The notes beneath the pieces were generated by a model that was given only the letters and a program-made list of their open reading frames with translations, made no database searches and had not been told where the DNA came from. The translations under genes and the position numbers were made by a program. From the NCBI GenBank assembly GCA_965370735.1, contig CBDUVS010000001.1:1-24163 (forward strand): 24,163 nucleotides of DNA, given 5' to 3'. Below, piece by piece: positions 10,051 to 11,995 of this stretch. Origin of the DNA: an uncultured bacterium (GTDB lineage: Bacteria > Omnitrophota > Gorgyraeia > JAGLLT01). Within the stretch, counting starts at the first letter, position 1. The number at the start of each line of letters is the position of its first letter.

Positions 10051-11844
10051 TTATAAAGTTTTCTTAATTTTTTCTATGCTGTAAACTTCAATAAAATCAC
10101 CATTTTTAATATTATTAAAGTTCCTAAATCCAATACCGCACTCAAATCCTTCCTTTACCTCTTTAGCATCTTCCTTAAATCTTTTGAGAGAATCTATTGT
10201 ACCTGTAAATATAATTTCGTCATCTCGGACAACCTTTGCCTCCATACCCCGTTTCACAGTTCCCTTAGAAACCATACAACCGGCAATCGTGCCCACTTTA
10301 GAAACTTTAAATACCTGACGCACTTCGGCTCTACCAACTAATGTTCTCTTGATATGCGGCTCCAGTAAACCTTCCATAGCTGTTCTTATATCAGAAATAG
10401 CTTCATAGATAACGCTATAAAGCTTTATCTCTACACTTTTATCTCTAGCTATTTCACTTGCTTTTTGTTCTTTTCCGATGCCAAAACCAATAATTATGGA
10501 ATGAGTTACAATAGCTAACATAACATCAGATTCATTAATATTACCCACACCCTTGTGCACTATATTAAGTTCAACTTCGGAGCTTTGTATTTTATCTAAT
10601 GAAGCGCATAACGCTTCAAGCGAACCTTGAACATCAGTTTTGACTATTAAATTTAATATTTTAATTTTACCCTTTTGAATTTCTCTGGATAAATCCTCCA
10701 AAGTAACAACCTTACCCTTGGGTAACAAATCTTTCTCTCTTTTATGGTGCCTTCTTTTTTCAACAATGGCCTTGGCTTTTCTTTCATCATCTACAGCATA
10801 AAAAACATCTCCAGCTTCAGGTATACCTGATAAACCCAATAATTCAACTGGAGTTGAAGGCCCGGCTTCTTCCAGCCGATCACCATGATCATTAATCATT
10901 GCTTTAATGCGGGCATAATGAAGGCCGGAAATAATAATATTCTGAAGTCTCAATGTGCCATCAGCAACCAAAACCGTAGCCATAATACCGCTTCCCTTGG
11001 TTACTCTCGCCTCAATGACTGTTCCGCTGGCAAATTTATTAGGATCAGCTTTGAGCTCCATCATTTCAGACTGAAGCAAAATCATTTCAAGCAGTGTGTC
11101 TACGCCCTCCCTGGTTTTAGCTGAAACGTTAACGGTTATTATCTCACCGCCCCAATCCTCCGGCGTTAAATCCATTTCCTGCAATTGTGTTTTGACCTTA
11201 TCAATGTTGATATTTGGTTTATCAACTTTATTAATAGCCACTATTATCGGAACTTTTGCCGCTTTTGCGTGATCAATAGCTTCAACGGTCTGAGGCATTA
11301 TACCGTCATCCGCGGCTACAACTAAAATCACTATATCCGTAACATGAGCTCCTCTGGATCTCATGGCAGTAAACGCTTCATGACCGGGAGTATCCAGAAA
11401 GCAAATTTTATGATTATTATGAACAACTTCATAGGCACCTATATGCTGCGTTATTCCGCCGGCCTCACCATCAACAACATTACTTTTTCTTATAGCATCT
11501 AATAGTAACGTCTTACCATGGTCAACATGGCCCATCATAGTAACTACCGGTGGTCTTGATACTGATTTGCTATTATCAGAAGATTTTTTATGAAGATGTA
11601 TTAGTTCTTCTTCATCAGAAAGTTTTTCCTGAAGTTCTACGTTATAATCAGCAGCTATCTGCTTACAAACGTCTTTCTCGAGAGATTGATTTATATTGGC
11701 AAATATATTCTTTTTAATCAGGTGAGTGATTAGCTCATTGGTTTTTGTTTGAAGTTTGATTGCCAAATCTTTAACGCTTAACGGAAACGTTGCTTCGACA
11801 AAACGGGCGTCTTTCTTTCTTTCCTTTTTTCTTCTCAGACACAT
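10051..11844 (-). CDS. infB: translation initiation factor IF-2, main part (second N-domain, G domain, C domains); out of frame with its N-terminal segment
   Basis: RPPVVTMMGHVDHGKT, GGITQHIGAY, FLDTPGHEAF, AINKVD, DVQGS, ECGI. The ATG at 11844 lacks an SD; the natural start appears to be 11995 in another frame. Confidence 0.95.
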   Translation of the reverse strand: MCLRRKKERKKDARFVEATFPLSVKDLAIKLQTKTNELITHLIKKNIFANINQSLEKDVCKQIAADYNVELQEKLSDEEELIHLHKKSSDNSKSVSRPPVVTMMGHVDHGKTLLLDAIRKSNVVDGEAGGITQHIGAYEVVHNNHKICFLDTPGHEAFTAMRSRGAHVTDIVILVVAADDGIMPQTVEAIDHAKAAKVPIIVAINKVDKPNINIDKVKTQLQEMDLTPEDWGGEIITVNVSAKTREGVDTLLEMILLQSEMMELKADPNKFASGTVIEARVTKGSGIMATVLVADGTLRLQNIIISGLHYARIKAMINDHGDRLEEAGPSTPVELLGLSGIPEAGDVFYAVDDERKAKAIVEKRRHHKREKDLLPKGKVVTLEDLSREIQKGKIKILNLIVKTDVQGSLEALCASLDKIQSSEVELNIVHKGVGNINESDVMLAIVTHSIIIGFGIGKEQKASEIARDKSVEIKLYSVIYEAISDIRTAMEGLLEPHIKRTLVGRAEVRQVFKVSKVGTIAGCMVSKGTVKRGMEAKVVRDDEIIFTGTIDSLKRFKEDAKEVKEGFECGIGFRNFNNIKNGDFIEVYSIEKIKKTL

Positions 11845-11995
11845 CTTTCAGTTCATGTTTTAGTATTTCCGCCGTTTCTTCATCAACGGAGCTCATATGA
11901 CCTTTAACTTCTATTTTAAGCTCTTTAAGCTTATCAATAAGCTCTTTACTTGAAAAACCTAATTCCTTAGCTAATTTAAAAACACGTATACTCAT
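11771..11995 (-). CDS. infB: IF-2 N-terminal (IF2_N) segment, frameshifted relative to the rest of infB
   Basis: MSIRVFKLAKELGFSSKELIDKLKELKIEVKGHMSSVDEE is a typical IF2_N domain. It starts 4 nt after the nusA stop and ends in a non-IF2 tail (RRPFCRSNVSVKR) after an A-rich tract. Confidence 0.9.
   Translation of the reverse strand: MSIRVFKLAKELGFSSKELIDKLKELKIEVKGHMSSVDEETAEILKHELKDVSEKKKGKKERRPFCRSNVSVKR
11811..11830 (-). repeat. A6 homopolymer plus (GAAA)3 tract at the infB frame switch
   Basis: Minus strand GAGAAG-AAAAAA-G-GAAA-GAAA-GAAA-GAC; A6 at 11830-11825 and the 12-nt tetranucleotide tract at about 11823-11811. Confidence 0.85.

Follow-up and report, generated by a model that had tools for sequence, protein, structure and literature searches.

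Organisation of the infB locus

The window, i.e., the whole 24,163-nt stretch of MAG DNA that was analysed, carries the genes proS, rimP, nusA, infB, trpS and scpA in this order on its minus strand (positions 8266-15412, ORF list). An identical gene order, assigned by Pfam families, is present on a conspecific ENA scaffold, where scpB comes after scpA. The context is that of a rimP-nusA-infB operon, with the corresponding minus-strand ORFs located at 13157-13633, 12000-13157, and 10051-11995, respectively. rimP and nusA overlap by 1 nt, which, together with the 4-nt spacing between nusA and infB, suggests translational coupling. The genes rbfA-truB-rpsO-pnp, which follow infB in E. coli, are missing from the gene order of the region 8266-15412. 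An Rfam search of the window gave no matches.

In the ORF list, infB is represented by two minus-strand ORFs that lie one frame apart. They overlap by 74 nt, and the frame of the downstream ORF is +1 relative to that of the upstream ORF (the N frame). Thus, a single continuous infB reading frame is absent from the window, and no second infB copy is found in the MAG. The features of this part of the locus are as follows:

12000-13157, minus strand: nusA, directly upstream of infB with a 4-nt spacer (ORF list)
11771-11995, minus strand: infB 5' fragment (74 aa), comprising N1 (IF2_N) and the start of the Lys/Glu linker (ORF list, Pfam)
10051-11844, minus strand: infB 3' part in the +1 frame (597 aa), comprising N2, the G domain, domain II, C1, and C2 (ORF list, Pfam)

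The product of the 74-aa ORF matches Pfam IF2_N with an E-value of 7e-15 over residues 3-50. According to sequence alignment, its residues 1 to 57 are collinear with the conspecific 652-aa IF-2, while its C-terminus is a 17-aa out-of-frame tail terminated by the TAA at 11771-11773. The 597-aa ORF carries a second IF2_N domain, followed by GTP_EFTU, EF-G_D2, IF-2, and GTP_EFTU_D2 (Pfam), and shares 99% identity with both conspecific 652-aa proteins. Counted from ATG 11844, the initial six codons run through the linker region in a different frame. Across the split ORFs the IF-2 domain set is complete, with PF04760 occurring twice (once per ORF) in addition to PF00009, PF22042, PF11987, and PF03144. 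Both the synteny and the domain content are those of an ordinary infB.

Several statements of an earlier note, made from the sequence of the window, agree with this layout. The IF2_N domain and the rest of IF-2 were described as lying in different frames, which is borne out by both the ORF list and Pfam. The TGA two codons above ATG 11844 and the stop of the N frame at 11771-11773 are both present, as is the stretch GAG AAG AAA AAA GGA AAG AAA GAA AGA, within which the change of frame had been placed. The calculation that removal of one nucleotide yields a protein of 647 aa is likewise correct.

Conservation of infB in conspecific and related genomes

Three independent conspecific assemblies, with DNA identities of 99.4-99.9%, encode a continuous IF-2 of 652 aa. 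The contigs compared with the window are:

L021, ENA scaffold, 27.6 kb: 99.86% identity over 21,959 nt, 17 substitutions, 1 gap
L022, Logan contig, 15 kb: 99.58% identity, 47 substitutions, 1 gap (the same as in L021)
L023, ENA SPAdes node, 23.6 kb, coverage 22: 99.39% identity, 105 substitutions, 2 gaps

The gap common to all three contigs comprises 14 nt inside infB and is, in the blastn alignment, the sole indel in the 21,959 nt shared with L021. A six-frame search of related genomes found infB uninterrupted and devoid of stops in 30 out of 30 genomes that contain the gene on one contig. Three of these relatives belong to the same genus, and each has a stop-to-stop infB frame of 661 aa. A protein search assigns the organism to the Omnitrophota, its genus being near Candidatus Kappaea; an IF-2 homolog with 84% identity is that of Candidatus Kappaea frigidicola.

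The length of the protein is also well conserved, with 19 of the 25 nearest IF-2 homologs comprising 652 aa, and no indels occur in the linker among homologs down to 64% identity. In view of this conserved length and indel-free linker, even the frame-restored 647-aa form would be unusual. Neither the exact 597-aa product nor the exact 74-aa product is recorded in any other assembly. When free-standing relatives of the 74-aa peptide were sought, no family emerged, the sole match being a 56-aa fragment on a 580-nt contig. A scan of JGI metagenomes with a pattern accepting both alleles returned 0 matches, although JGI seemingly holds no conspecific, the nearest protein being 88% identical.

A 14-nt deletion in the homopurine linker tract

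Relative to all conspecific and congeneric sequences, infB in the window is shorter by 14 nt, all of which are purines. The junction was located by MAFFT alignment of the window with the three conspecific contigs and L002. The features in the vicinity of the lesion are:

11823-11824, minus strand: deletion junction, 14 nt missing between G11824 and G11823 (MAFFT, blastn)
11810-11836, minus strand: remnant of the homopurine tract, 27 nt (tract census, DNA alignments)
11859, minus strand: private substitution, A for G, changing Arg46 to Lys in N1 (mismatch list, alignment)

The affected tract encodes the Lys/Glu linker between N1 and N2 of IF-2. The intact linker sequence reads SEKKKEKKEKERKKDARFVEA, and the GG dinucleotide at the junction is absent from the intact tract. 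The tract measures 41 nt in G002, the closest relative, as well as in the conspecific contigs. No homopurine run in the 1.42-Mb genome of G002 is longer than this one (C16:312440), the runner-up reaching 30 nt. Despite the instability of the tract, the linker length is invariant across genus and family, which suggests selection on linker length.

The deletion can be read as a plain loss of 14 nt without microhomology. Alternatively, it can be read as slippage by 15 nt, with one G added, between two direct repeats of 9 nt (AAAAAGAAA) that lie 15 nt apart. Neither reading matches the lesions proposed earlier. An extra A in the A6 run had been suggested as the cause of the frame change, but the alignments instead reveal the 14-nt deletion with its junction at G11824/G11823. 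A gain or loss of a GAAA unit does not apply either, as the copy number of (GAAA)3 is the same in the window and in all conspecific alleles. The deletion that breaks infB is confined to this assembly and is non-programmed.

The substitution at 11859 lies 35 nt from the junction and is absent from the three conspecific contigs and from G002. With 17 SNPs in 22 kb, the chance of a private SNP occurring so near the junction is about 5%.

Frame integrity across the MAG

The MAG consists of 173 contigs with an N50 of 9.1 kb and a GC content of 37.8%. Frame breaks were surveyed by tblastn of 1,463 ORFs of at least 120 aa from the essentially complete genome G002 against the MAG. An ortholog with at least 70% identity was present in the MAG for 1,027 of these ORFs, amounting to 314,817 aligned residues. 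A frame change was flagged in ten of the 1,027 comparisons. Apart from infB, none of the flags represents a gene break: the other nine were traced to 1-nt differences in intergenic T-runs that appeared via antisense shadow ORFs, to N-terminal extensions of the stop-to-stop kind, and to a 6S RNA gene. infB is the sole truly frame-broken gene detected among the 1,027 orthologous ORF comparisons. Given that in-gene frame breaks were otherwise absent from this set, the MAG does not suffer from a general indel problem.

Sequencing-run contigs at the tract

Parts of the region were found in four public marine-sediment or marine runs, whose Logan contigs were compared with the window over positions 11500-12200; no RNA run was among those listed. 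At a depth of about 3, none of these contigs bridges the tract, and their ends fall at 11774 and 11807. Records seem to be cut at 11808-11835, a stretch that was skipped as a repeat in the contig comparison. Contigs of this depth provide no evidence for either allele. Their termination at the edges of the tract indicates, however, that assembly graphs are liable to break precisely here, leaving a gap that an assembler would need to bridge. The deletion allele may truly be present in the sample.

Programmed frameshifting, slippage, and repeat switching

A functional break could take several forms. Programmed +1 frameshifting or transcriptional slippage at A6/(GAAA)3 would restore full-length IF-2, while a change in repeat length would switch between a long IF-2 and a short IF-2 accompanied by a free N1 peptide, as raised in the earlier note. 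The tract is A-rich and repetitive, and a reading of the sequence indicates that the correct frame would be reached if tRNA-Lys re-paired by +1 at AAA-AAA-G, moving from AAA to AAG. However, the frame break is not conserved, infB being continuous in all 30 relatives and all three conspecific assemblies. Continuity in all relatives had been named in the earlier note as an outcome that would refute its proposal. The switch is further contradicted by the lesion itself, as the 14-nt block is a multiple of no repeat unit, (GAAA)3 is unchanged in the window and in all conspecifics, and no family of free-standing N1 (IF2_N) peptides exists. No stop is located at or beside the tract, where the N frame continues for 17 codons, and no slow codon is evident at the shift site. 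Efficient transcriptional slippage is known for A runs of about 9 or more, and the A6 run at this locus is short for such a process. Furthermore, frame rescue is required nowhere else in the genome, infB standing alone among the 1,027 comparisons. The sequence data effectively exclude programmed +1 frameshifting as well as transcriptional slippage and phase variation, and any functional role of the break is highly improbable.

The programmed +1 frameshift of prfB (RF2) resembles the situation at infB in that a +1 frame change is needed in a translation-factor gene. The prfB site, however, is conserved across bacteria and combines an in-frame stop with a Shine-Dalgarno-like upstream stimulator. 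None of these is found at the infB tract, upstream of which no Shine-Dalgarno-like GGAGG stimulator is present, and the infB break is not conserved even within the species. Rescue by transcriptional slippage at poly(A) tracts was reportedly described in endosymbionts by Tamas et al. in 2008, involving long A runs and many genes per genome. The two cases have in common a small AT-rich genome and a frameshift located in an A-rich tract, but the infB run is A6, and no second broken gene was seen among about 1,000 compared.

Technical or biological origin of the deletion

In the earlier note, a sequencing or assembly indel was ranked first among the possible causes. The technical origin is retained here as the favoured explanation, held with moderate confidence, while the proposed form of the error, a 1-nt insertion in A6, is not. 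De Bruijn graphs would break at the 41-nt tract when coverage is low; the probable error is then an incorrect join of the two ends or the use of a faulty read or amplicon. The organism itself would possess a normal, continuous 652-aa IF-2. A technical cause is inferred because the allele is private and violates a strictly conserved linker length in an essential gene. It is also in line with the tendency of graphs to break at this position at low coverage, where a mismatch-tolerant join or a faulty read could yield the deletion, and with the private substitution 35 nt away, as would be expected near a poorly supported join. Collapse of a repeat purely at the k-mer level was considered as the origin and ruled out, since the junction GG does not occur in the intact allele. 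Its absence there means that deletion-bearing reads or a mismatch-tolerant gap closure were required.

Artefactual pseudogenes are well documented, which adds to the case for a technical origin: in the work of Cooley and Wright (2024), a large share of the frameshift pseudogenes in assemblies were artefactual, varying with coverage and with the assembler used (PMC11017572). The infB break resembles such spurious pseudogenes in being a lone frame break in a conserved essential gene that is absent from near-identical genomes, and in its location at a low-complexity site of a fragmented draft (PMC11017572). It differs from them in that the MAG has no elevated pseudogene count and in that the lesion comprises 14 nt instead of the usual 1-nt homopolymer error (PMC11017572). 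The otherwise very clean assembly counts against a technical origin, as does the GG junction. In either case, the break belongs to a known class, namely indels in low-complexity tracts of technical or mutational origin, and does not constitute a new recoding system.

Alternatively, the 14-nt deletion may be real in the strain that dominates the sampled population, having arisen recently as a lesion of an unstable homopurine tract. This explanation is a serious one, although we consider it the less probable of the two. The cell would then contain N1 as a free peptide of 74 aa, together with an IF-2 that lacks N1 and is produced from one of two putative starts:

11842-11844, minus strand: putative start ATG of the 597-aa N1-less IF-2, A-rich upstream, no clear Shine-Dalgarno sequence
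11764-11766, minus strand: putative in-frame TTG for reinitiation, 4 nt past the stop of the 74-aa ORF (start scan)

A real deletion is consistent with the high base-level quality of the MAG, which follows from the lack of any other frame-broken gene, and with the GG junction, which needs a physical template and, in most short-read assemblers, supporting reads. The adjacent private SNP at 11859 could mark a distinct haplotype. The 597-aa ORF keeps all essential IF-2 domains intact, and the upstream context of ATG 11844, compared with that of 20 neighbouring gene starts, leaves this codon as a possible start with an A-rich leader, many genes here having no clear Shine-Dalgarno sequence. ATG 11844 is nevertheless situated inside a translated upstream ORF, without a recognisable ribosome-binding site, and N2 would be truncated by a start at TTG 11766. 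The use of either start is predicted from sequence context. The conservation of N1 and of the exact linker length in every relative points to purifying selection against such a lesion, and the deletion allele was not found in other assemblies.

Whether such a lesion could persist can be gauged from E. coli, where cells remain viable without the N1 sub-domain, which functions in NusA binding and not in core initiation (PMC12297416). Short isoforms of IF2 occur naturally in several bacteria, and E. coli cells from whose chromosome IF2 Domain I has been deleted are viable, growing 15-18% more slowly (PMC12297416). A real deletion may thus be tolerated, but with a similar growth cost the allele would remain uncommon in natural populations. 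An IF-2 without N1, as would result from a real deletion, would resemble the E. coli Domain I deletion strain and the short members of the IF2 alpha/beta/gamma series (PMC12297416). The short E. coli forms arise from in-frame internal starts of an intact gene, whereas a lesion and a putative start would be responsible here, and a detached N1 peptide would be left behind, unlike in the case of the E. coli isoforms (PMC12297416). A naturally split IF-2, consisting of a detached N1 and an internally started N1-less IF-2, in a sediment population dominated by the deletion allele is regarded as unlikely. In such a strain, the tether between IF2 and NusA would be naturally knocked out, at a homopurine tract where deletions tend to recur. 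A real deletion would also provide a modest natural example of the dispensability of IF-2 N1 outside E. coli.

Implications for the species representative genome

The main value of the finding lies in quality control. The species representative genome contains a broken essential gene, though the species clearly has an intact 652-aa gene. Annotation pipelines will call the split infB a pseudogene or a truncated IF-2. The split infB lends no support to a new recoding or switching mechanism.

Further observations in the MAG

Small indels between the MAG and G002 in other conserved regions are limited to 1-nt T-run differences in intergenic ribosome-binding-site regions. They are located at approximately C53:4737, C14:2720, and C13:10950 of the MAG and represent ordinary interspecies variation. 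The 6S RNA signal in the frame survey was false because an open stop-to-stop frame of G002 runs through the gene. The 6S/SsrS RNA gene itself is encoded on the minus strand of MAG contig C84 (L106:1333-1487), matches Rfam RF00013 with 74 bits and an E-value of 1.6e-14, and is located directly upstream of a 440-aa-class ORF.
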